Shown here: positions 4,374 through 53,736 of the stretch, piece by piece
How positions within the stretch are numbered: position 1 is the stretch's first letter
Layout: each line of letters starts with the position of its first letter
Source of the DNA: a virus
Taxonomy: Duplodnaviria > Caudoviricetes
Strand: one strand, 5' to 3'
DNA: 64,000 nucleotides
Virus record (IMG/VR): IMGVR_UViG_3300020202_000075
Span: 1,180-65,179 of that record
Notes under the pieces: model-generated
Databases searched by the model: none
Told to the model about the DNA's origin: nothing
The model's input: only the letters and a program-made list of their open reading frames with translations
Made by a program: the position numbers and the translations under genes

Positions 4374-4880
4374 TCAGCGCTTCGCCAGCATCGCGTCCTT
4401 ATTCTGACTCCCTGCGCTGGACCCGAAGAAGAATTGAATGATCGCGCCCCAAGCCGTACCGAGCGCGCCCAGCATCACCAGCAGGGCCTCGGAATTAGAG
4501 GTTTTCAGGTGGCCGGTAAGCATCCCGACCAGTATCCCGAAAAACCCGATGGTCACTAGGATAGCCAGCACCGCCGGAATCTTGCTGCGTGTATCGGCCT
4601 GCATCTTCCTAGCTGAGTCCCGGTCCCCGGCATGGATCTTCTCTAGGTCGATATCCAGCTCGCGCAACTTCACCGTGAACGCCTGCTCGGCCTGCTTGGC
4701 AGCGATGATCTGATCCCCGGTCAGGGAACCACCCTTAAAAGCCTCCTCAATGGCGTCCTGGGTGGGCTTCTCGATGCCGAGGGCCTTACCCAGCACTTCT
4801 ACGGCTAGCCCTCCTACGGGGCCTGCAAGGGCCGTGGCGATGGTCGGGGCAATGCCTCTGAGTAGATCGGTGAGTTTCAT
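4374..4880 (-). CDS. holin-like membrane protein (3TM type)
   Basis: IAPTIATALAGP N-terminus, DRDSARKMQ, two TM helices, FFFGSS C-terminus; next to lysozyme. Confidence 0.75.
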   Translation of the reverse strand: MKLTDLLRGIAPTIATALAGPVGGLAVEVLGKALGIEKPTQDAIEEAFKGGSLTGDQIIAAKQAEQAFTVKLRELDIDLEKIHAGDRDSARKMQADTRSKIPAVLAILVTIGFFGILVGMLTGHLKTSNSEALLVMLGALGTAWGAIIQFFFGSSAGSQNKDAMLAKR

Positions 4881-4996
4881 GGTTGTACTAGCTTCCTTTG
4901 TTGTTACGTATAACTCTCATTTCCGGGCACCGCAGGCGCAGACCCTCCAAGGTCTACCGCCGTAGTAGGTTTTTACCCACCACGAATGCCGATGCT

Positions 4997-5419
4997 TCAT
5001 CCCTTCTCCATCTTCGCGGCGAGCCGTTCAACCCTCTTCGGGGCTTGCGTGTACCACTTGCTGTTCCGCATCTCAGCGGCGGCGGCAGCGTAGTTGCCAG
5101 CCTCCAGCGCTGCCTTGAGCTTCTTGAACGCCGATAGACCGTCCCTGAAGATGTGCGCCATATTGAGTAGCACCGCCTTGCGCTCGTCCGTCAGGGAGTC
5201 GAAGCCGGGGAAGAACACCTTGGCAGCGGTTTCGTTCCGCACCATGTCGTTTTCCAGCAGGACGTTGATCTCGTAAGGGCTCAGTCCTCCACCCTTGCGC
5301 TTGTCGATTAGCCTGCCGACCCCGATAGTCCAGTAACCCTCGGAATCCGGGTAGGCATATGGAACGATCCCCTCGTCAATCTTCAACTGCTCGCGGGCAA
5401 TGTCGCGGTAGTTACCCAT
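4997..5419 (-). CDS. T4-like lysozyme (GH24) endolysin
   Basis: DEG-x-YPDSEGYWTIGVG (E-D-T triad), SKWYTQAPKRVERL. Confidence 0.92.
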   Translation of the reverse strand: MGNYRDIAREQLKIDEGIVPYAYPDSEGYWTIGVGRLIDKRKGGGLSPYEINVLLENDMVRNETAAKVFFPGFDSLTDERKAVLLNMAHIFRDGLSAFKKLKAALEAGNYAAAAAEMRNSKWYTQAPKRVERLAAKMEKG

Positions 5420-5732
5420 TGGACAGCGGCTTGAATATCTGCACCGGCATAGGTGCTACAGACTTATCCGAGAAGTAACCCACGATCACCCCGGCGTGCT
5501 CAAAGAACAGGAAGCACCCCTCGAATGTCTTTCCGCCCTCCTGCCAAGTAGCCCTGTAGGGAAGGTTTGCCACCGCATCGAGTTTGCAGGGCTCGTCGTA
5601 GAGCGTGATCGTTATCCCCTCTACATTCGCCACGTAGCGGGGGGCGGCATTCGCCGTTCCCGAATATAGAACGATCGTTCCAACCATTAGCACGACCACC
5701 AGCAGCAACATCCCTACGTTCCACCTGTTCAT
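5412..5732 (-). CDS. secreted protein in lysis cassette
   Basis: Signal peptide ending ANA-AP; homolog at 51159-51527. Confidence 0.75.
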   Translation of the reverse strand: MNRWNVGMLLLVVVLMVGTIVLYSGTANAAPRYVANVEGITITLYDEPCKLDAVANLPYRATWQEGGKTFEGCFLFFEHAGVIVGYFSDKSVAPMPVQIFKPLSNG

Positions 5733-5926
5733 GGCGCTACCTCTTCTTGTCGTGACTGCAAATCGTGTATTCGGTGAATCAGCTCTTCCGAAACCTTGTT
5801 GATCCGCGCAACCGTCCTCGCCAGTTCGCTCAACCGGCCATCGCGCATGTAAACCTGCAGCGCGTCGCCTAATTTGCGTAACTCCACGCAGCGCTCATTG
5901 ACGTAAATGTCATTCAGGGTGCTCAT
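5729..5926 (-). CDS. small helical protein
   Basis: ATGA coupling; positional and sequence counterpart at 51524-51736. Confidence 0.65.
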   Translation of the reverse strand: MSTLNDIYVNERCVELRKLGDALQVYMRDGRLSELARTVARINKVSEELIHRIHDLQSRQEEVAP

Positions 5927-7035
5927 ACCGCCGCCACGAACCTTTGCTGCCCAGGCTGTAGCCTTGGCGTTATCGAACGATTGCTCCTGAACCACGTACC
6001 GCAGTCGGAACACTGATAGCGCTGGTACTTCAGCACTTGCGCCCGGTGGTCCCCGTCCCTCACGTAATCAAACGACCCGCAAGAGGGACACACAGGATCG
6101 TTGTTGCTCGCCCCCCTGTTGGGATGGCCCTTGATCCAAGGGAGAAGTCTTTTGTAAAGCTGCTCCAGCAGTTCAACGTCGCGGCGGTTGTAGGCTTCCA
6201 TCTTCGCCCATGCCTCCGCGTTGTCCCTCATGCACTCAAGCCATAACTCAGGCCCTTCGTGCCTTAGCTTCCCGCCGATCTCCAGCGTCTTGCAGATGTA
6301 GTCGAGCTTGTTCGAGGGAAAGAGGAACGTCTGCCACATGGTTTTCAGCAGATCGACTTGCTTGTAAGGCGAGGGTGGTTTCAGCCCGTGGACGAGAAAT
6401 TCCTTGTTGAGCGTTGGGATGTCGAACTTCTGCCCGTTGTAGTGGACTACCGCGTGAGCTTCCGAGAGAAGCTTCTGCATCGGCTGGAGAAGCTTCCTGT
6501 GGTTCTTGTCGGTCAGCCGGTGGAAGATGACTTCCTTGCTCCCTAACCACTTCGCCGTCCAGCAAAGGACGTGTCCGTTGGCATCGATGAAGTCGGGGTT
6601 GATGTTCTGCTTGTAAACAGCACCCCAGAAGTAAGCCCTGTTAGGCGCAGTCTCTATGTCCAGCAGGAGAATCTTCGACTCGTCGCCAATGACTCCAGCG
6701 GCCTGCAGGAACTCCGTCCACGTAGCCCAATGGGTTTTCCACTTAGACCCAACGGAACTGTGCTTGTAGAAGTTCTCCCGAGAAGGAAGCGCTTTGTGGT
6801 CCGCGATCCACTTCTTCAACCCGTCTATGCAATCCTGCTGGGAGAGAAGCGGCTTTCGGTAGGTCCGTCTGCCGTGAGACAGGAGCCACCGGGAAAGCGT
6901 GCCGGGGGACATGCCGAGAGATTGCGCCGCTTTGGTCACTGAGCCCGTAGGATGCAGGGGAGATCTGCTGTCCTCGAAAGCCTTGAGCCTGCGCTTTTCT
7001 TCCGCCAGCGTTACCTGATTAGGCTTGCGCTTCAC
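5923..7035 (-). CDS. HTH + DEDD/RNase H-like 3'-5' exonuclease + Zn ribbon
   Basis: SVTKAAQSLGMSPGTLSRW HTH; LLDIET, YNGQKFDIP, YNRRDV; CPSC...CSDC. Confidence 0.85.
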   Translation of the reverse strand: MKRKPNQVTLAEEKRRLKAFEDSRSPLHPTGSVTKAAQSLGMSPGTLSRWLLSHGRRTYRKPLLSQQDCIDGLKKWIADHKALPSRENFYKHSSVGSKWKTHWATWTEFLQAAGVIGDESKILLLDIETAPNRAYFWGAVYKQNINPDFIDANGHVLCWTAKWLGSKEVIFHRLTDKNHRKLLQPMQKLLSEAHAVVHYNGQKFDIPTLNKEFLVHGLKPPSPYKQVDLLKTMWQTFLFPSNKLDYICKTLEIGGKLRHEGPELWLECMRDNAEAWAKMEAYNRRDVELLEQLYKRLLPWIKGHPNRGASNNDPVCPSCGSFDYVRDGDHRAQVLKYQRYQCSDCGTWFRSNRSITPRLQPGQQRFVAAV

Positions 7036-7361
7036 GTCTTAGCCCTCAGATAGCGGACGAGCGAGGGATTTTCCTTCATGACTGCCAGGAGTCCCGTTGC
7101 GAGCCCCTGCACCCACTGTTCCTCGGTGCCGCGCTTGTTGATCGCCCCATCCACGCCCATCTGAAAGCAGATGGCATGTATGCATTCATGGAGCAACGTG
7201 TCTTGATCGTTGCCTAAAGACCTACCAGCAAGGATGGAGATAACGTGCTTGTCGTTGTCGCACTCCCCGTAGTCACCATCTTCAAACCCCTGCGCCCGCT
7301 CGGTGACTACCCTTACCTTGTAGACCTTCCCGAGGATTTTTATTCTTGTCGGGCGCTTCAT
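7032..7361 (-). CDS. HEXXH zinc metallopeptidase-like protein
   Basis: DTLLHECIHAI...EEQWV. Confidence 0.8.
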   Translation of the reverse strand: MKRPTRIKILGKVYKVRVVTERAQGFEDGDYGECDNDKHVISILAGRSLGNDQDTLLHECIHAICFQMGVDGAINKRGTEEQWVQGLATGLLAVMKENPSLVRYLRAKT

Positions 7362-7529
7362 CTAGTGAACCGGCTCCCCGGCCCTCTCTCTCGCTAACAA
7401 GAGAGCACCGAACATCGCCATGTAGATTTCGACTACCGTTTCCTCTACGCCCAACTCACGGATTTCGGACTCCTGCCAAGCTAGGACACCCTGCTTGACC
7501 ATCTCGGGGAGGATTACGACTTCGCTCAC
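7362..7529 (-). CDS. small hypothetical protein
   Basis: GTG overlapping upstream TGA; 55 aa. Confidence 0.55.
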   Translation of the reverse strand: MSEVVILPEMVKQGVLAWQESEIRELGVEETVVEIYMAMFGALLLARERAGEPVH

Positions 7530-7699
7530 GCGCGACCCGTCCACCGCTTCACGGTTTCTGTTTCCCAAATACGGATGCCGGTCCAGATGATCGTAAAGAG
7601 CGCCGCGATGGCAGGAAGCCACCCAGCGACGGTTGCGATTGCCGTGCTTACCGAGAGCGCGTCGGCAACGTGCTTGAGCTGTTCCTGATTGGCGGACAT
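7526..7699 (-). CDS. small holin-like membrane protein (57 aa)
   Basis: Manual translation MSANQEQLKHVADALSVSTAIATVAGWLPAIAALFTIIWTGIRIWETETVK. Confidence 0.7.
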   Translation of the reverse strand: MSANQEQLKHVADALSVSTAIATVAGWLPAIAALFTIIWTGIRIWETETVKRWTGRA

Positions 7700-24760: not shown

Positions 24761-27385
24761 CTACGCCATCCACCCCACGGCTTGAGGGATGTTCCTTCGC
24801 GGGGGCGGTGCTGGGGCGCGTTCCTCTTTCGGGAACACAATCTTCAAGTCCGGCTCGCAGATGCGCGAGAGTGCGTCTAGTTGATCGTCGTGCAGGGCAT
24901 GGGGGAAGGCGACGTATTCTTCCTCCACGAACGTCTGCACCAGATTTACCGGCACGCGCTCCCAATTTGTGACGTGCAACGTCTCTGGTAGCCAAATCTT
25001 CCCCTGCTCGAAAAGAGGAAGAAGTCTCTTGATGCGGTCGATCTTTGATGTTTGGCCTGCAACTTCTCGAATCTGGAAGCGGTAGTTCTCCTGCTCCATC
25101 TTGCCCTGCAAGGCTTCGATGTCGGCCATCATCCCGTAGCGCTCGTATCTCACTTCACGCGGTTTCCACTTCCTATGCAGATCGAAAACCCGCTGGCAGC
25201 GCTCGGCAAGGTTCAGCCTGTCCCTCACCATATCCAACACGTAGTAATTGCCGTCAGGGCCAAGACCCACCACCATCATCGCGCTGTAGTCGGAGCCCTT
25301 CTTCTTGCTTGAGGCCGCGTCCACCAGAAGATAGCGGTTCAACTTGTCGCTGTTGGAAACCCGCTTGTAATGACGTAACCACTCACGGCGGAAACCTTGC
25401 GCCGTATCAGCGGCGGGGTTCATCAGGATTTGGCTCGAATACGAGTAGGGCCCCATGTCACGGCGCTTCTCGAAATGAACCTCCTCGGGCCAGTAGACTG
25501 ACTTGCCGTCCTCCGTCCCACCTTCCCTGCCTGGATAGATACGGGGAATCGCAGTACCGCGCTTGATGATCGTCCCGTAAGCGTCTGCGTGGTGCCAACG
25601 AGTACCGGCGAATCTCCTGCATCCGCCCAACTTCCCGAGGTTGTAACTTTCCTCGAGACGGGTCATGGTCTTTTCGATCATCTCCGGTGTAGTCACCGAC
25701 GCCTGCACAACCACGTCGTCGTAAAGAAGCACCCGGAAATGCTTGGAAACCGGCTGGCCATCAACAAGGCCCCACGCTTCTACCGTCGCTTCGTTTGGGT
25801 TCGACTTTCTCTTGACGATGATCCCGTCGTCCTCGGACCACTTCGGAGCCTGCCGCGTGTCCTCCCAAAGAATGTCGGGAAACGCCGCCTTTAATGTGGC
25901 GTTCGTCTCCAGCTCGCGCATGATTAAACGGAGGAACGCCTTGGAGATCGGGCGTGTATGGCTGAAAATTCCGACCGTCACTTCCGGGTCTTTCAGGATG
26001 TCCTGAATCGTCAGCCCGAAAGTGATGATGGAACTGTTGTGCGTCGGGATCAGCTCTTTGCCGGCGAGGTACATCCCGCCCTCAACCTGAATGCAGCGCG
26101 TCGGCACACTTTCAATCTGTTCTATCTTGCTGACCAATCGCGTATCGCGGTGCAGATACTTGTCTATCGCTCTATCAGCCTTGCGCTTCAAGGCAAATGG
26201 GTTGCGGTCCTTGTGCGCTTGGAATGAAACTCGCCAAACAGGATACGGCTCGCCTTCATACATCTTCTCGTAGTAGGCGAAGCGAGGACGCAATCCCAAA
26301 CCTGCGGCCAACTCAAAAACCTGTCTCGCAAGTCTCTCGTTCGTATTTACGAAATCTGCAGTGCCCCGGTCGTTGCAGTAACCATCCGTATCCATGAGGC
26401 CGCGCAGTAATTCGGTGCGCTGGTGGATTGAGGCGCGCATGTACTTCTCAGGGATGTGCTTGTTCTTCCAAAGCCCCATCCTGCGAAGCACGCCGCCCAT
26501 TCCGGTCCCGCGCTTACCCTTGATCCCCGGATCAATGGCGTAATTCGAGCAATTCCTTTGGCGGCCATACGGCAGTTCGACAACAACGCATCCTTTAGAC
26601 CTGATACGTTCGATCAATTCCCGGTCGGCGTCGGCGCAGGTAATTACGGGCTTGGTGGCTGTTCCGTCGCCAAGCCACGCCCCCAGGACATAGGGGTCTA
26701 TCTCTAGGTTCTGCGCCACCGGCATCTCCAGCGCAGCAGCCACCCCGACATCACAACGATAGTCACCAGAAAGCTGCTCCGTGGTAACTACTTCCTCCGT
26801 AAACCTGATTTCGCGTAAGTCGCTATTCGCAACGCGGTGCTTGTGCTTGACTCGTAGCTTCCAAAAGTGACCCGCGCCGGCCACGATCTCGGCCCCATCG
26901 TGGAACGTCACTCGGTAGCACTTGGACGTTGTATAGCGCTCGCTCAACGCCAGAACGCGAACCTGCTTCCCGCTTGGAGCGAATACCACGTCTCCTACTT
27001 CGAGCTGGCCGTGTGTCGTCCAACCTCGATTAGCAGTGAGCATCGGCGTATCGTCGGCTAAGTCTTTCCCATGCTCCCGCGCCCATAGGTCTATGTGACC
27101 GTTGGGCGAGGTTTCGACCTCCCTGCACCTAGCGTAGAACCAGGGGTGGTAAAGGTCTTGCCGCTTGCACGCCCGCACAAGCATGTAGAAGAGGTCGGCT
27201 TGGCAAAGTATCCGCACCGCCCCGAGCAGGTTGCCTTCCTTCCTGCCCTTCATTTCAATCTCGTCCCAGACTTCGGCAGCGGACTTCATACGAAGGGTGC
27301 GAAGTTTCTTGCCGGTGTCGGCAATCACGTCTGCCGGCAGACGATCAGCGACTACTTCTTTCTTCTTTCTTACCGACGCGCCCAA
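24761..27385 (-). CDS. terL: terminase large subunit, intein-containing
   Basis: AREHGK/S Walker A split by intein, LLYDD Walker B, GTRWH, LLVDAA and HDDQLDA nuclease motifs. Confidence 0.93.
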   Translation of the reverse strand: MGASVRKKKEVVADRLPADVIADTGKKLRTLRMKSAAEVWDEIEMKGRKEGNLLGAVRILCQADLFYMLVRACKRQDLYHPWFYARCREVETSPNGHIDLWAREHGKDLADDTPMLTANRGWTTHGQLEVGDVVFAPSGKQVRVLALSERYTTSKCYRVTFHDGAEIVAGAGHFWKLRVKHKHRVANSDLREIRFTEEVVTTEQLSGDYRCDVGVAAALEMPVAQNLEIDPYVLGAWLGDGTATKPVITCADADRELIERIRSKGCVVVELPYGRQRNCSNYAIDPGIKGKRGTGMGGVLRRMGLWKNKHIPEKYMRASIHQRTELLRGLMDTDGYCNDRGTADFVNTNERLARQVFELAAGLGLRPRFAYYEKMYEGEPYPVWRVSFQAHKDRNPFALKRKADRAIDKYLHRDTRLVSKIEQIESVPTRCIQVEGGMYLAGKELIPTHNSSIITFGLTIQDILKDPEVTVGIFSHTRPISKAFLRLIMRELETNATLKAAFPDILWEDTRQAPKWSEDDGIIVKRKSNPNEATVEAWGLVDGQPVSKHFRVLLYDDVVVQASVTTPEMIEKTMTRLEESYNLGKLGGCRRFAGTRWHHADAYGTIIKRGTAIPRIYPGREGGTEDGKSVYWPEEVHFEKRRDMGPYSYSSQILMNPAADTAQGFRREWLRHYKRVSNSDKLNRYLLVDAASSKKKGSDYSAMMVVGLGPDGNYYVLDMVRDRLNLAERCQRVFDLHRKWKPREVRYERYGMMADIEALQGKMEQENYRFQIREVAGQTSKIDRIKRLLPLFEQGKIWLPETLHVTNWERVPVNLVQTFVEEEYVAFPHALHDDQLDALSRICEPDLKIVFPKEERAPAPPPRRNIPQAVGWMA
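26036..27064 (-). mobile_element. intein (343 aa) with LAGLIDADG homing endonuclease, class-3 signature
   Basis: Starts DLADDTPML, block B GHFW, block F TRCIQV, ends PTHN|S; LGAWLGDG and LRGLMDTDG. Confidence 0.9.
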
Positions 27386-47456: not shown

Positions 47457-47687
47457 ATGAGCGATGCCCAAGAGATAGCCGACAGGATCACGCTGCAGAA
47501 CGCCATCGAAAGGGTGCGCGACTACGTGAGCATCCGCGACGAGTACCCCATGCGCGAGCTTGGCGACGTGGTGCATGCCGTTCACCTGACCACGGATTGG
47601 GAGGCGGAAATCAGGCTGTCGGACCTACGCATGATCCTGGCCGCATGGGACAAACGCCACGATGGAGATAACGGCGAGGCCAAATGA
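47457..47687 (+). CDS. hypothetical protein
   Basis: ATG start, coupled. Confidence 0.6.
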   Translation: MSDAQEIADRITLQNAIERVRDYVSIRDEYPMRELGDVVHAVHLTTDWEAEIRLSDLRMILAAWDKRHDGDNGEAK

Positions 47688-48010
47688 ACAACGACCTGTA
47701 CCAAAAGCTGCTGGATTGCTCGTTGGCGTCAACGCTGGAGATTCAGCGCCTACGCGCAGCGCTTGAACCGTTCGCGGCGTGGGCCGACTCAATGCAAACG
47801 CTGAAGGACGGTGAGAAGGTATGCGGGATCGAGGTTCGCCACTTCCGCCGTGCCGCGCAACTTCTAAGTCCCTTGCAGTTACCTCAGACGCGCGAGGAAT
47901 GCCTGTCTGAAAGCGACAACTGTCGCAAGAACAATCCAAACGTAACGCAGGTGTGCTGCTCGCTCTACTCGCAGTACGCCGCACAGGAACGACCGCAGAA
48001 GGGGGAATGA
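47684..48010 (+). CDS. hypothetical protein
   Basis: EIQRLRAALEPFA...HFRRA phage motif. Confidence 0.65.
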   Translation: MNNDLYQKLLDCSLASTLEIQRLRAALEPFAAWADSMQTLKDGEKVCGIEVRHFRRAAQLLSPLQLPQTREECLSESDNCRKNNPNVTQVCCSLYSQYAAQERPQKGE

Positions 48011-48147
48011 TGGAGAGCTTCGCTGGACTTTTCTTTGTGGCGATGGCTGTGTTTCTCGGCCTGTCGGAGATAGCCGGGGCCATCCGCCGTATGAACATCA
48101 ACGTGACCGTTGGGACCATCACCATCAAGGGCTACCACGATGAGTAG
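48007..48147 (+). CDS. small membrane protein
   Basis: GGGGGA RBS; one TM segment. Confidence 0.5.
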   Translation: MMESFAGLFFVAMAVFLGLSEIAGAIRRMNINVTVGTITIKGYHDE

Positions 48148-48180
48148 GGACGTTCCGACTCTGGAGACGGCTTACCGCCC

Positions 48181-48537
48181 ATGAACGATCAATTCCACAC
48201 CCGCGCCGACATGATCGCCGCGGGACTAACGCTGGATCAGCAGAACGATTTGCTGATGGAAAAACTGGCGCGGCTAAAGATGCAGCTTGAAGGTGCCAAA
48301 GCCCACGCAGCGGCCACCGGGGACTTCAGCGACAGGGACTGGTACAACCGCGCCAACTTCGCCTACCGCATGCTCGCCAAGGAGCACCAGCAATGCCTGC
48401 GCGAGATCGGGGAACGCAACCGGGCACGCCGTAGGGCCACTGGCGAGGAGTTTGAGCAGAAGTTCTTGGAGGTAGCTCGCCGCCGCCTGCACCCCGACGT
48501 GTTCCGCGACATCTTCGATGAGGCAAAGGCGGGATGA
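48181..48537 (+). CDS. hypothetical helical protein
   Basis: DRDWYNRA...F.EVARRRL...F..I pattern. Confidence 0.7.
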   Translation: MNDQFHTRADMIAAGLTLDQQNDLLMEKLARLKMQLEGAKAHAAATGDFSDRDWYNRANFAYRMLAKEHQQCLREIGERNRARRRATGEEFEQKFLEVARRRLHPDVFRDIFDEAKAG

Positions 48538-48805
48538 TGGACCGTGCCCTGAAGCAGGCTGTTCCCTATTGGACTAGGTGGATCTTTGTGCTCAACCGGA
48601 ATGTCACCTGGAGGCCATTCAACATCGCTGCGGCATCGAAGGACGCGACCTCAAAGCATGGCGTCAACTCATGAGAACCCTCACGAGCTCGCGCACGAGC
48701 GCAAGGAAGTTGGCTACAACGAGGGGATTGCAGACGACGTTCTTCAACTTACGGGTCATTTTTTGACCTCTTCTTCTTGTAACAACTTACCAACACTACC
48801 AGAAC

Positions 48806-50269: not shown

Positions 50270-50695
50270 CTAGTATAGAAGCGCCGCCTCGGCCGCCCGG
50301 CGGATTACAAGCCCCGGCAGCACCTTACCGCCGCCCCTGACCCACCTTGCGAGCTCACGCTTCGCCCCCTCGACGTCGTCCTCATTGAGGCGCCGGCGCA
50401 GCGTGGATGCCTTCAGGTTGCCTAGCCCGAGGTTGTAGGCGAAGTCGGATATGGCGCAGAGGCCGTCCGAGGCCAGCCGCGGGCATAGGATCAGCGTCCC
50501 CTTGGCGAACTTGAGCGCGTCCTGCTCGAGCCGTTTGTCAGCGTATTCCTGCGTCCACGGCCTTCCCGGGAAGACGTCCAAGCCGGTGGACCCCCATCCG
50601 CACGTCCAGACCCCCGCCGGGCAAATGTAGGGGGTCAGCCGGCACCCCTCAAAGCGCCGGATCAGCGCGTAGAGCGTGGCTAGCTGATCGATCAC
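50270..50695 (-). CDS. lysozyme (GH24) endolysin
   Basis: FEGCRLTPYICPAGVWTCGWG, FAYNLG, LPGL..RR.AE; GTG start. Confidence 0.92.
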   Translation of the reverse strand: MIDQLATLYALIRRFEGCRLTPYICPAGVWTCGWGSTGLDVFPGRPWTQEYADKRLEQDALKFAKGTLILCPRLASDGLCAISDFAYNLGLGNLKASTLRRRLNEDDVEGAKRELARWVRGGGKVLPGLVIRRAAEAALLY

Positions 50696-51162
50696 TTCCC
50701 GCGTTTTGCGAGGGTGCGGTCGGCAATGTAGAACCCGAGGATCCCGGCGATGAGTTCCCTGTCCCAGTCGCCGGCCACGAACCCCTGCTGGTATAGCGCG
50801 AAGCACCACATCAGGAGCGCGATCGACGCCATGGCCGGGCGGATGGAGCCGTTCCAGGCGTCAACCCACTTGATGCCGAGCGGCTTCATTGCCGTCTTCA
50901 TCGCCTCGACGAACGCCTCGGCCTCGGTCTTCTGGATGGCGAGGTCGCCCATGACCTGGACCTCCTTCACGTTCAGGTCGGACTGCAGTTTGAGCCGCTC
51001 CATGTCGCGCTGGTGGCGCTGCGCCTCGAGGTCGGACTGGAGCTTCATCCGGTCGAGTTCTTGTGCGTGGTCCTGCTTCTTGTTGAGCCACGCGGCGATC
51101 TCGCCCCAGATCATCCTGAAGGCGGACCCGCCGAGGAAAGAGAACAGGGCGGATAGGATCAT
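50692..51162 (-). CDS. holin-like membrane protein
   Basis: N-terminal amphipathic helix, coiled coil, SIRP + two TM, GFYIADR. Confidence 0.7.
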   Translation of the reverse strand: MILSALFSFLGGSAFRMIWGEIAAWLNKKQDHAQELDRMKLQSDLEAQRHQRDMERLKLQSDLNVKEVQVMGDLAIQKTEAEAFVEAMKTAMKPLGIKWVDAWNGSIRPAMASIALLMWCFALYQQGFVAGDWDRELIAGILGFYIADRTLAKRGK

Positions 51163-51527
51163 GTGCTGTGGTCCCTGAAAGCGCGCCGCGGGATGGCCTG
51201 TAAGGGCGAACCCTCCTCATCCACGGAGAACACGAACTTCTCCATGCGGCCGTTCGACATCATTTCGAGCTCAATCCAGCAACTGGACCACTGCCGCCCA
51301 CCCCACGTCAGGCGCGCGGCCTTGAGCTTCGCGTGGAAGGGCTGGTTGATGTGCCGCAGCACCTTCTCGTCCTTGCAGGCGTCCTGAAGGAGCACGAGAA
51401 CGATTGGGCCGTTGTCCCCTTGGCCTTTGAAGGTGGGCGCTGCGTTCGCCCTTCCCGAATAGAGAACGATCGTGCCAACAATCAGCACGACGACCAAAGC
51501 CAGCGCTCCAGCTTCCCACCTGCTCAT
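51159..51527 (-). CDS. secreted protein in lysis cassette
   Basis: Signal peptide nearly identical to 5412-5732. Confidence 0.75.
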   Translation of the reverse strand: MSRWEAGALALVVVLIVGTIVLYSGRANAAPTFKGQGDNGPIVLVLLQDACKDEKVLRHINQPFHAKLKAARLTWGGRQWSSCWIELEMMSNGRMEKFVFSVDEEGSPLQAIPRRAFRDHST

Positions 51528-51736
51528 GAATCACCTCTGCTTCGTGCATAACGGATGTCGTTGATCCTCCACAGCGCCTCGCGCGAGACGTCGTGGAGTG
51601 CTGCCATCGCTTCCCAGATGCCTGACTCGCTGCCGCGGACCAAGGCCGCCTGCAGGCCCTCTTGGAGGGCCTTGACGCGGTCGCAGTGCTTGCGGATCTC
51701 TTCGTCGTTGACGATCACTTGCGCTTTCTCTTCCAC
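51524..51736 (-). CDS. small helical protein
   Basis: Counterpart of 5729-5926 (C..L...LQ...S.E...RI.D). Confidence 0.65.
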   Translation of the reverse strand: MEEKAQVIVNDEEIRKHCDRVKALQEGLQAALVRGSESGIWEAMAALHDVSREALWRINDIRYARSRGDS

Positions 51737-52800
51737 TTCAAGAAATCCACGCCCTCGTCAGCGTTCCAGAACGGCTTGACCATGTCGGGGTGGTCGGTCG
51801 GCATCGTCGGGTCGATCACCGTAAGCACGCACGGCCCCAGCGTCTGGTCGCGGAAGCCTTTGTCGCGGGCGTATCGGTCGTAAATCTTGTAGCTCGCCAC
51901 CTGGAAGCAATGGCAGGCGATGCCGCTCTCTGGATCTTTGATGATTCCGTAGCCGCTCTTGTGCTTGTGGCCGCAGATGGAGATGTGGTCGCGGACACCA
52001 TGAAAGACGGCCTTCATCGGGCCATGCGCCGGATTCCACTGCGAACTGCCACCGAAGTCGTGGCGTGCGTTGATACGCACCACCGCGCCGTTCGGGAAGT
52101 TGAGCCCTAGCCTGACCTCGGATGACTGGTAGAGCGCGTTCTCCTGCCTCGCTATCCACTTCAGGGGGTCGCCGGCGCCGCTCCAGCCGTCGTGGTTGCC
52201 GCCGATCATGTAGAGCCAGCGCGTGTCCCTGATGAGCCATTCGGCCAGCTTCCACGCTTGCTTCGCCGAGGTGGACTGGTCCCCGTACAGCTTCGCTAGG
52301 CGCCCTACCCAGTTGTTCGTCGTGTCGCCTACGTTCGCCGCGAAGAGTCCCTCCACCGAGTTGCATAGGCGCTTGTGGTGCTCGAGGGCCTCGATGTCCG
52401 TGCCGTCGTCGTCCACGTGGGGATCGCCGAAGTGCAGGATGCCGATCGGCCCGGGCACCTTGATCTTGATCGGGATGAGCTTGCGCGCCTCTTCGTGCTG
52501 CCTCTTCTTCGCGAACTGCTTTTTCCGGTGAGCGACAAGTACGTCGATGTCAACGTCGTCGTCAGGCAGCGGCGTGAAGGTGAACTCCTCCTTCTTGGCG
52601 CGCTTCATGTAGCCTGCCGCCGCTGAGTCGGACGTATCAACGGGAACGCCGAGGCGGTCTCCGGCCTGCTCGACTCGCCGGCGGACGGTCTTCTCGTCGA
52701 GCCCCATCTTTCTGGCGGCCTCGGAGTAAATCTTCCCGCACTCGACCCACACCTCGTGGGTGTGTCGGAGAACCGCTTCCGGGACGGCGGGCGTTGGCAT
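51715..52800 (-). CDS. HTH + calcineurin-like metallophosphoesterase
   Basis: SEAARKMGLDEKTVRRR HTH; GDPH, VGD, GNHD, RH, GHKH. Confidence 0.88.
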   Translation of the reverse strand: MPTPAVPEAVLRHTHEVWVECGKIYSEAARKMGLDEKTVRRRVEQAGDRLGVPVDTSDSAAAGYMKRAKKEEFTFTPLPDDDVDIDVLVAHRKKQFAKKRQHEEARKLIPIKIKVPGPIGILHFGDPHVDDDGTDIEALEHHKRLCNSVEGLFAANVGDTTNNWVGRLAKLYGDQSTSAKQAWKLAEWLIRDTRWLYMIGGNHDGWSGAGDPLKWIARQENALYQSSEVRLGLNFPNGAVVRINARHDFGGSSQWNPAHGPMKAVFHGVRDHISICGHKHKSGYGIIKDPESGIACHCFQVASYKIYDRYARDKGFRDQTLGPCVLTVIDPTMPTDHPDMVKPFWNADEGVDFLKWKRKRK

Positions 52801-53106: not shown

Positions 53107-53186
53107 CACGGCACGCCCTGGTCGCAGTCCCATGGGTACTGCTCCGCGTCGTCCCATGGGTCGTAGTCGTAGTCGGGCTCGTTCAC
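53103..53186 (-). CDS. acidic PW-repeat micropeptide (27 aa)
   Basis: GAGG + GTG; GTGA overlaps at both ends; MNEPDYDYDPWDDAEQYPWDCDQGVPW. Confidence 0.45.
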   Translation of the reverse strand: MNEPDYDYDPWDDAEQYPWDCDQGVPW

Positions 53187-53482
53187 TTCTGCCTCGCGCG
53201 CCTCTCGGCTCGTTGCTCGGCCTCCATCACCTTGATGGACTGGAGGATGACTTGCGTGTTCTGGTCGATGATCTTGACGTGCTCGCGCACCTCGCTGATC
53301 GCCTGCCGCGTGTCCTTCCTGTCCTCCTCCTGGCGCTTCTCGATGTGCTGCAGCCTTTCGGCAGAGCGCCCACGGTCCACCTGCGCCTCGCTGTAGACCG
53401 CCAGAGGGCCACCGACGATGCCAACGACCATCGCCACCGAGGCGAGCGAGATGCGACCGTTTTTCTTCTCGTCGCTCACCAT
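53183..53482 (-). CDS. membrane-anchored coiled-coil protein
   Basis: GGAGG RBS; TM then coiled coil. Confidence 0.65.
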   Translation of the reverse strand: MVSDEKKNGRISLASVAMVVGIVGGPLAVYSEAQVDRGRSAERLQHIEKRQEEDRKDTRQAISEVREHVKIIDQNTQVILQSIKVMEAEQRAERRARQK

Positions 53483-53736
53483 GTCCTCCGGTAGATCAGA
53501 TGCGCGCCGCCGAGGCCCACGGTTCCGTTCTGGCGGTTGACGATAGGCTGGAGGGACAGATCCACGGACTGCGCGCGCCCGTCCGACCATTGCCGGCCGC
53601 CGAGATTGAAGAGCTGGCCTTGATGCATCTCTGGAATCTCAGGGAGCGGGAGGAAACCCTGCGGCTGCGGACGCTCAAAGGTCGGCTGCTGCTTCGTGAG
53701 CGCGTCAACGAGCGCGCGGCGGGAGGCGTCGTCCAC
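53476..53736 (-). CDS. hypothetical protein
   Basis: Coupled ORF after tail fiber. Confidence 0.55.
   Translation of the reverse strand: MDDASRRALVDALTKQQPTFERPQPQGFLPLPEIPEMHQGQLFNLGGRQWSDGRAQSVDLSLQPIVNRQNGTVGLGGAHLIYRRTW

Follow-up and report, generated by a model that had tools for sequence, protein, structure and literature searches.

The DNA analysed here is a window of 64,000 nucleotides (nt), positions 1,180 to 65,179 of the IMG/VR virus record IMGVR_UViG_3300020202_000075 (Duplodnaviria; Caudoviricetes), and all coordinates are those of the whole window. It holds segments of two related temperate podophage genomes (phage 1 and phage 2) inside one virus record of ~65 kb; in each segment the plus strand carries the xis/integrase genes, after which come minus-strand genes for lysis, accessory functions, tail and head. 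The subject of this report is a pair of adjacent accessory genes found in both phages, one encoding a small HExxH protein (here called the mini-zincin) and the other an enzyme of 370 or 361 amino acids (aa) in which a helix-turn-helix (HTH)-type region precedes a catalytic domain, predicted to be a DEDDy 3'-5' exonuclease in phage 1 and a metallophosphoesterase (MPE) in phage 2. The pair is a real, recurrent accessory module whose function is predicted. It is proposed that a DNA-tethered exonuclease acting on DNA in the lytic cycle is accompanied by a zincin working in the same DNA context, both encoded in the distal part of the late operon of temperate podophages; this reading of the sequences is the one we prefer, tentatively and at somewhat less than an even chance. 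The phage 1 chain, which like that of phage 2 lies on the minus strand, consists of the following open reading frames (ORFs), from upstream to downstream.

7526-7699, minus strand: single-pass membrane protein of 57 aa, first of the coupled chain (hydrophobic residues ~17-40, read in the translation)
7362-7529, minus strand: small ORF of 55 aa, variable between lineages; its GTG at 7529-7527 overlaps the preceding stop codon at 7528-7526
7032-7361, minus strand: mini-zincin of 109 aa, with the HExxH motif H58-E59-x-x-H62 and a predicted third ligand, E81; phrog_1233
5923-7035, minus strand: enzyme of 370 aa, with an HTH-like helical region (~1-115), a DEDDy 3'-5' exonuclease domain (~120-311) and a four-cysteine ribbon (316-345)
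5729-5926, minus strand: helical protein of 65 aa, whose start is an internal Met of a 94-aa ORF (5729-6013), with ATGA coupling at both ends
5412-5732, minus strand: signal/anchor protein of 106 aa, homologue of the phage 2 protein at 51159-51527
4997-5419, minus strand: endolysin of the phage lysozyme family (PF00959, 34.2 bits against a cut-off of 22.3)
4374-4880, minus strand: holin-like membrane protein of 168 aa (phrog_1544, E 2.2e-22), last gene before the integrase region

From 7699 downwards the junctions are, in order, GTGA, TAG-ATG, GTGA, ATGA, ATGA and an 8-nt overlap. Those of GTGA and TAG-ATG type were read directly in the bases, and the remaining overlaps were derived from the ORF coordinates. 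The TAG of the 55-aa ORF (7364-7362) abuts the zincin ATG at 7361, and the start and stop codons of the zincin and enzyme genes overlap by 4 nt. Inside 4374-7699 there is no sigma-70 promoter-like site and no minus-strand terminator-like site. The ORFs of this interval agree with the order given by a sequence-only reading of the same DNA, namely membrane protein, tiny ORF, HExxH protein, enzyme, helical ORF, secreted protein and lysis genes.

The 370-aa enzyme matches PF13482 (53 bits, cut-off 22), PF10108 (DNA_pol_B_exo2; 27 bits, cut-off 24) and phrog_403 (E 2.3e-87). Its DEDDy residues, D126 and E128 (the DxE of Exo I), D205 (Exo II), and Y282 and D286 (the Yx3D of Exo III), are invariant in all 14 sequences aligned, as are the ribbon cysteines C316, C319, C342 and C345. 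The predicted structure (pLDDT 74) begins with N-terminal helices (residues 10-112, pLDDT ~80-93), after which come the exonuclease domain and then a beta ribbon. Foldseek returned 107 PDB matches at E <= 0.001, led by family B DNA polymerases (E 5.8e-6), whose matches span the exonuclease part of the model, and a PDB sequence search with the exonuclease alignment (A3) gave nothing at E <= 0.01. The closeness of this fold to the PolB proofreading domain argues for DNA as the substrate. The HTH is indicated by a sub-threshold Pfam match (HTH_1, 18.3 bits, residues 30-50) and by the confidently modelled helices, so that the earlier description of the protein as an HTH-DEDD exonuclease-Zn ribbon is borne out for the DEDD domain (PF13482, phrog_403) and the four cysteines, whereas its HTH stays below threshold in Pfam.

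Relatives of the exonuclease are abundant: 6,833 of the 8,000 proteins scored reach E <= 1e-10, many of them full-length at ~364 aa, and other DEDD relatives have a different N-terminus with HTH_30 and HTH_8. Among isolated phages 1,612 records match the exonuclease, only 13 of which cover at least 80% of the query. The same catalytic domain and Zn ribbon occur in stand-alone DnaQ/PolB-exo-like phage exonucleases (phrog_403; LKA1 ORF34, PA11 and mycobacteriophage proteins labelled 'DnaQ-like'). LKA1 ORF34 covers 90% of the 370-aa query, including the N-terminal region, and sits after genes for an exonuclease and endonuclease VII. Most phrog_403-type phage exonucleases, in contrast, lack the N-terminal DNA-binding region and are encoded in replication modules, whereas the window gene lies between tail and lysis genes, behind a zincin.

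The mini-zincins of both phages match phrog_1233 (E 2.8e-16 in phage 1 and 7.4e-16 in phage 2) over profile positions ~6-110 of 306. Residues G32, C34, I41, H58, E59, H62, A63 and E81 are shared without exception by 16 diverse zincins, and the HExxH motif with its downstream Glu (H58, E59, H62, E81) is likewise invariant in a separate alignment (11/11). In the AlphaFold2 model (pLDDT 90) four strands are combined with three helices, and E81 starts the helix at 80-97; as modelled, the layout appears to be that of a minimal gluzincin-like domain (HExxH plus a downstream Glu). Assignment to a described family is less direct. The SprT-like profile PF10263 matches phage 1 zincin below cut-off (17.9 against 25.6 bits, E 0.0029) over an 18-residue stretch around HExxH and does not match phage 2 zincin, DUF6782 matches phage 1 zincin below threshold (17.5 bits), and the best PDB sequence match is Spartan 6mdx at E 0.81. 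The best of the weak Foldseek matches are selecase, PprI/IrrE (8sln, PprI-ssDNA) and Spartan, with minigluzincin 4qhi at E 0.4 (TM 0.36) and Spartan 6mdx_A at E 1.5. In the VIA structural comparison AQ_1354 ranks first (Z 5.2, root-mean-square deviation 3.8, 91 residues aligned) and Spartan 6mdx_A second (Z 4.8, 4.0, 84 residues), followed by YbeY (4.5), jannalysin (4.3), lethal factor (4.2), PprI (4.0), Wss1 (3.6) and ArdC 6sna (3.3), with the minigluzincin entries (selecase, jannalysin, abylysin) at 4.3 (4jix_B), 3.9 (4jiu_A) and 3.8 (4qhf_A); every one of these Z values is weak and falls below the tool's level for more than a common arrangement. Structural look-alikes in the Atlas are viral clusters in which a minority of members is labelled M78 (16%) or SprT-like (14-19%).

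Two groups of described zincins invite comparison. Spartan, Wss1 and SprT are HExxH zincins that act on DNA-bound proteins, and Spartan is both the second-best VIA match and the best PDB sequence match; unlike them, the window zincin stays below the family thresholds, lacks a DNA-binding or Zn-binding subdomain and has Glu as its predicted third zinc ligand, where SprT has His. The nearest described concept is that of the zincin-like metallopeptidase (MPTase) domains in polyvalent proteins of phages and plasmids, ArdC among them (Iyer et al. 2017; PMC5512222). They share with the window zincin a core of a small beta-sheet, an HExxH helix and a second helix with a Glu ligand, and both are carried by phages and proposed to act on partner domains or host proteins. 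As described there (PMC5512222), the polyvalent MPTase is a domain of a giant injected protein, whereas the window zincin is a stand-alone protein of ~110 aa, for which ArdC 6sna is only a weak fold match.

The family is large: the profile search found at least 19,000 clusters (50% identity) at E <= 0.001, 2,754 of them at E <= 1e-10, and most members are stand-alone proteins of 95-135 aa; P0039 is the one longer or fused form that emerged when 8,000 candidates were scored. A few zincins are tandem duplicates of 185-250 aa (P0098, P0126, P0053), and the second copy in P0126 lacks the HE of the motif; such duplication is a hint of dimeric function in the family. In a Verrucomicrobia metagenome-assembled genome (that of loci L004 and L005) six matches to the zincin profile lie on different contigs (L022, L026, L029 and L031 among them), some fragmentary and one with two in-frame TAG stops, a pattern more in keeping with a decaying element present in several copies in bacterial DNA than with an intact phage.

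The HExxH protein might not be a protease at all and could instead be a metal-dependent nuclease or RNase of YbeY type, or a non-catalytic partner or inhibitor that shields phage DNA. AQ_1354 and YbeY are among its best VIA matches, and the loss of HE from one copy of a tandem form would suit a non-catalytic role, but no sampled family member departs from the HExxH motif and the Glu, the motif of YbeY is another one, rich in His, and the low Z values noted above hold for the YbeY-type matches as well. We consider this explanation improbable.

In phage 2 the corresponding region has the following layout, again from upstream to downstream.

53476-53736, minus strand: soluble ORF of 86 aa, preceding the next gene
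53183-53482, minus strand: transmembrane (TM) and coiled-coil protein, 99 aa from an internal ATG, upstream of the zincin; a 91-aa equivalent occurs in locus L113
52804-53157, minus strand: mini-zincin, 117 aa from the first ATG; phrog_1233
51715-52800, minus strand: HTH-MPE of 361 aa, occupying the exonuclease slot; phrog_7339
51524-51736, minus strand: helical ORF of 70 aa, positional analogue of 5729-5926
51159-51527, minus strand: secreted or anchored protein of 122 aa, homologue of 5412-5732
50692-51162, minus strand: holin-like protein
50270-50809, minus strand: lysozyme

The same coupled order had been claimed for both phages. Phage 2 does have the HExxH protein, the HTH-MPE, the 70-aa ORF, the secreted protein and the lysis genes in that order, but no tiny ORF precedes its zincin, and a 25-nt gap lies between the TM/coiled-coil gene and the zincin gene. 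Homology between the partners, also claimed, holds for the zincins (45% identity, E 1e-30) and for the secreted proteins (42% identity, E 9e-19) and fails for the helical proteins (BLASTP of the 94-aa ORF against the 70-aa ORF, E 2.6; the 65-aa version 25% identical after MAFFT alignment). The two enzymes are unrelated to each other in pairwise comparison, as had been stated. That of phage 2 was correctly called an HTH-metallophosphoesterase: it matches phrog_7339 (E 2.1e-46) and, above cut-off, HTH_30 (27.5 bits against 27, residues 11-62), and the MPE motifs GDPH, GDTTNN, GNHD and GHKH can be read in its translation; the Pfam profile Metallophos (PF00149) stays below cut-off (14.2 against 21.5 bits). 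PDB sequence searches returned no match for this MPE or for that of locus L032 and a single match, at E 0.027, for that of L110. An alignment of the MPEs (A5) showed 16-22% identity with motif I of the window enzyme misaligned, and its invariant columns were discarded.

Phage MPE nucleases resembling these zincin partners are known from Cluster A mycobacteriophages (Gp48 and the L5 gp54 family), with which the L032-type MPE (phrog_221) aligns in tblastn searches (L5 gp54 E 7e-6, group ~1e-6). The MPE Gp48 of A10ZJ24 breaks down DNA in linear, plasmid and genomic form; it is toxic, is required for infection, destroys host DNA and silences defence genes (PMC12287305). It is an early gene and is described there without a zincin partner, and the comparison is further limited in that the phage 1 enzyme is a DEDDy protein and not an MPE, while the phage 2 MPE belongs to phrog_7339, a different PHROG from the phrog_221 of the L032-type enzymes that match the Cluster A MPEs.

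These data bear on an anti-defence role, in which a phosphodiesterase would destroy cyclic oligonucleotide or nucleotide immune signals and the zincin would be a second anti-defence factor. Both catalytic folds hydrolyse phosphoesters and the genes occupy an accessory slot in the late operon, as this role would have it; yet a DNA-binding N-terminus together with a Zn ribbon suggests polymeric DNA as the substrate, the exonuclease fold is nearest to DNA polymerase proofreading domains, kin of the MPEs bear DNase annotations or have been demonstrated to be DNases (PMC12287305), and no known anti-signal enzyme family turned up in general scans, no dedicated search having been made. We rate the role as highly improbable. 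A cyclic-nucleotide substrate for the enzyme is unlikely in view of the PolB proofreading-like fold and the DNase activity of the sole tested phage MPE found (PMC12287305).

Zincin loci were gathered from genomes (5), IMG/VR (11, then 80) and metagenomes (28). An HTH-MPE is encoded directly downstream in each of the eight loci with a zincin sharing 43% or more identity with that of phage 1 (L110, 91%; L111, 76%; L112, 69%; L113, 45%; L032 and L033, 44%; L115 and L118, 43%) and also in L050, where the zincin is 37% identical. The slot is filled by members of four PHROGs: phrog_403 in phage 1, phrog_704 in L110 (E 2.8e-108), phrog_221 in L111, L112, L115, L118 and L032, and phrog_7339 in phage 2, to whose enzyme the truncated 92-aa ORF downstream of the L113 zincin is near-identical at the N-terminus. 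An HTH-DEDD enzyme behind a zincin, the arrangement of phage 1, was seen once among the loci gathered. Both L110 and L118 retain the later chain of small ORF, signal-sequence protein and endolysin.

Comparison of L110 with the window at the DNA level reveals 83% identity across the zincin gene (7360-7034), no homology across the enzyme gene, and a return to 79% identity at 5849-5747, a stretch that lies in the small helical gene. Loss of homology over the enzyme gene and its return behind it indicate that the enzyme gene was exchanged as a cassette, which is bordered upstream by the stop codon of the zincin gene and ends downstream inside the gene for the small helical protein. The non-orthologous swap of the effector proposed in the sequence-only reading is thus upheld by the L110 comparison, by the HTH-MPEs of the eight closest loci and by the four enzyme families.

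The N-terminal DNA-binding region, as judged from sequence, is common to different catalytic types. The first 60 residues of an HTH-DEDD protein (P0244) share 33 identities (55%) with the HTH-MPE of L111 (E 3e-11 for the whole alignment), the second HTH of another DEDD protein (P0249) aligns with the N-terminus of phage 2 MPE (E 2e-4), and HTH_30 is found both in other DEDD relatives and in phage 2 MPE. IMG/VR scans with two N-terminal alignments (A6 and A7) gave 168 and 160 pattern matches, none of them a confirmed relative. In Autographiviridae the same alternation of DEDD and phosphoesterase after exonuclease and endonuclease genes occurs without a zincin: in LKA1 (L218) an exonuclease and endonuclease VII are followed by an HTH-DEDD protein, and in an Acinetobacter Friunavirus (L221) an exonuclease and an endonuclease are followed by a 'phosphoestherase with HTH domain' and a deoxynucleoside monophosphate (dNMP) kinase.

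Constant HTH-type N-termini beside a varying catalytic domain could reflect a proteolytic switch, in which the partner encoded downstream is cut by the zincin, perhaps where the HTH tether joins the catalytic domain, with the result that the nuclease is switched on, set free or inactivated. ImmA-ImmR, IrrE-DdrO and CapP-CapH are protease-repressor pairs of this kind with a Peptidase_M78 protease, and the window pair resembles them in having a small HExxH...E zincin beside an HTH protein in a DNA-linked context. HTH-type N-termini are found in the partners of all eight closest loci, of L050 and of both window copies, the zincin and partner genes are translationally coupled, and the conserved HExxH...E ligand pattern, with a downstream Glu as third zinc ligand, is that of the ImmA/IrrE type; Peptidase_M78 labels occur in 16% of members of the Atlas look-alike clusters and PprI/IrrE is among the weak fold matches. 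Against a switch, neither window zincin matches PF06114 (Peptidase_M78) at E <= 0.1, and the partners are enzymes with HTHs of HTH_30, HTH_1 and HTH_8 types (PucR, LysR and Fis type), unlike the XRE repressors of the M78 pairs, and are encoded in a late operon and not in a lysogeny or defence switch. The partner of the 91%-identical L110 zincin has an N-terminus dissimilar to that of the window exonuclease, and zincins also lie directly upstream of HTH-less DEDD exonucleases (L138, L151, L153 and L157) and of HTH-less 5'-3' exonucleases. A switch is, in our judgement, unlikely.

For the wider family, 137 zincin ORFs (a set that omits L020-L031 and L218) were grouped by single linkage at 50% identity into 37 clusters, a contig fetched twice (e.g. 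L009/L038 or L012/L047) falling into one cluster; after five clusters known solely from DEDD-ascertained loci had been set aside, 32 lineages remained. Thirteen of these include one or more members in which a same-strand nuclease gene lies no more than 200 nt from the zincin, and six kinds of nuclease are represented: 5'-3' exonuclease (after the DNA polymerase in T7-like phages), DEDD, MPE, ERCC4, RuvC and a phrog_244 resolvase. An HNH endonuclease adjoins the zincin in two further lineages. The partner is an HTH-enzyme in 5/32 lineages; beyond the eight closest loci, all of which have an HTH-enzyme, the settings of the zincin diverge. A fetch with the DEDD profile (A3) gave at least 80 loci; 78 of the 80 listed carry HTH-less ORFs of 233-277 aa (the exceptions being L138 and L217), 10 have a zincin within 3 kb upstream, and in four, those named above, it is directly upstream of an HTH-less DEDD exonuclease. 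In one T7-like locus (L018:6270-7420) the 5'-3' exonuclease behind the zincin looks split into a 117-aa N-terminal and a 145-aa C-terminal piece, separated by a 151-aa ORF with an HNH-like CxxCH motif (found by eye), an insertion that may be a homing endonuclease. Across lineages the enrichment of nucleases beside zincins is suggestive only.

This company would fit a broader proposal, that zincins of ~110 aa are a general, hitherto unrecognised nuclease-coupled class of phage protease, in which single-stranded or damaged DNA made by the nuclease activates the zincin, which then cuts a DNA-bound host protein (nucleoid, repair or defence) or the HTH tether of its partner; single-stranded DNA is reported to switch on IrrE and CapP. 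The selected property would then be DNA end-processing next to the zincin, so that unrelated nuclease folds could interchange. We rate the proposal as quite unlikely.

In the reading we prefer, the enzyme would bind DNA through its N-terminus during lytic growth and degrade it from ends or nicks, the target being perhaps the host chromosome or competing or defence-related DNA. The N-terminal HTH-type region would be kept while the catalytic module is swapped by cassette recombination. A lytic-cycle DNA exonuclease is suggested by the fold, by the exonuclease, endonuclease and dNMP kinase company of such enzymes elsewhere, and by the precedent of Gp48 as a DNase; T7 gp3 and gp6 likewise degrade host DNA. 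The zincin would share this DNA context, with a protein that is bound to DNA or senses it as the probable target of its cleavage, and would not be a dedicated maturase of one partner. Action on another protein is favoured because zincins 91% identical to each other (phage 1 and L110) serve enzymes with mutually dissimilar N-termini and catalytic domains, and because the wider family pairs with HTH-less nucleases of several folds.

Several observations weigh against this reading. The fold support for the zincin is weak, with none of 256 Foldseek matches at E <= 0.001, and its modelled structure leaves peptidase activity less than certain, the top VIA matches including the RNase YbeY family. None of the 20 phage 1 ORFs scanned is a DNA polymerase, which leaves a proofreading role possible for the exonuclease. 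In 17 of the 32 lineages no nuclease is adjacent, and the census counts are biased in that the nuclease classes were labelled after being seen beside zincins and have no genome-wide base rate. Other contexts of the zincin include a place between an internal virion protein and a tail fibre (a cluster of 21 loci), a place before the small or large terminase, endolysin genes, head genes in Lactobacillus phage CL2 and a repressor-divergent position in Streptococcus phage Javan443, and HTH-MPE or HTH-DEDD genes occur without a nearby zincin in LKA1, Friunavirus and MEP401.

Such contexts are what would be expected if the two genes were not functionally coupled and had entered independently, as morons or anti-host factors, into a slot prone to recombination that separates the tail genes from the lysis genes. 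The very size of the zincin family and its many settings (tail fibres, terminases, head genes, a repressor), the HTH-nucleases found without a zincin, the variable small ORFs at the flanks and the recombination breakpoints that bound the enzyme gene all speak for independence. Against it, the eight closest loci keep order and immediate adjacency despite four enzyme families, start and stop codons overlap by 4 nt, and adjacency to a nuclease recurs in other lineages. We hold independence to be unlikely; if it were true, the locus would be a case of ordinary accessory-gene mosaicism.

The literature search, which did not extend to subscription journals and supplementary files, found no description of a pair of mini-zincin and nuclease. 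The parts are already catalogued as phrog_1233, 403, 704, 221 and 7339; new here are the DEDDy exonuclease in the MPE slot, the mapped recombination borders, the HTH common to several catalytic types and the broader nuclease company of the zincin. Confirmation of the pair would give a named function to two very large families of phage genes now labelled 'hypothetical', the HTH-fused MPE and DEDD nucleases by themselves amounting to hundreds to thousands of phage records. The locus also offers a natural example of non-homologous catalytic modules exchanged behind a common DNA-binding domain beside a conserved partner, and the exchange of catalysis with HTH and partner conserved points to selection on the activity (DNA end degradation) and not on the fold. 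Should the zincin turn out to cleave host proteins as a protease working in a DNA context, phage host takeover or counter-defence would gain a new layer, and the protein would offer a compact protease scaffold.

The genes around the pair are less constant. The small ORFs upstream of the zincin show no homology between lineages; that of phage 1 (55 aa) has no PHROG match and is dissimilar to the one upstream of the L112 zincin. Pfam and PHROG scans gave no family match for the 57-aa membrane protein, for the 65-aa helical protein (70% identical to the equivalent gene of L110) or for the 106-aa signal/anchor protein, and the TM/coiled-coil protein of phage 2 has no Pfam match. A signal-sequence protein without a lipobox is kept just before holin and endolysin genes in both phages (5412-5732 and 51159-51527), in L110 (1871-2164) and in L118 (~6444-6776), and phage 2, L113 and L118 have a TM/coiled-coil protein ahead of the zincin. 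A canonical Rz/Rz1 pair was not observed among these lysis-region genes; the two proteins could be spanin equivalents, and the zincin-nuclease pair would then lie inside the lysis cassette. The link to lysis drawn in the sequence-only reading applies to position in this phage group and is not general. The holin function of the phage 1 protein at 4374-4880 is suggested by a similar protein annotated as 'holin' in MW202701.

The ORF scan of phage 1 found the portal, the major head protein and the large terminase, that of phage 2 found tail and virion proteins, and both integrases match PF00589. Two direct repeats, of 31 nt (77% identity) and 26 nt (92% identity), are present in 1338-2251 and 47645-48560; both recur at a spacing of ~46.3 kb, in early-gene regions upstream of the xis-int pairs, and this shared spacing fits two related phage genomes placed head to tail in one record. 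The large terminase ORF (24761-27385, minus strand; 874 aa) is matched by phrog_38 in two stretches, and its N-terminal part is matched by other terminase profiles and weakly by a DNA-primase profile (phrog_510); the ORF may contain an insertion, for example an intein.

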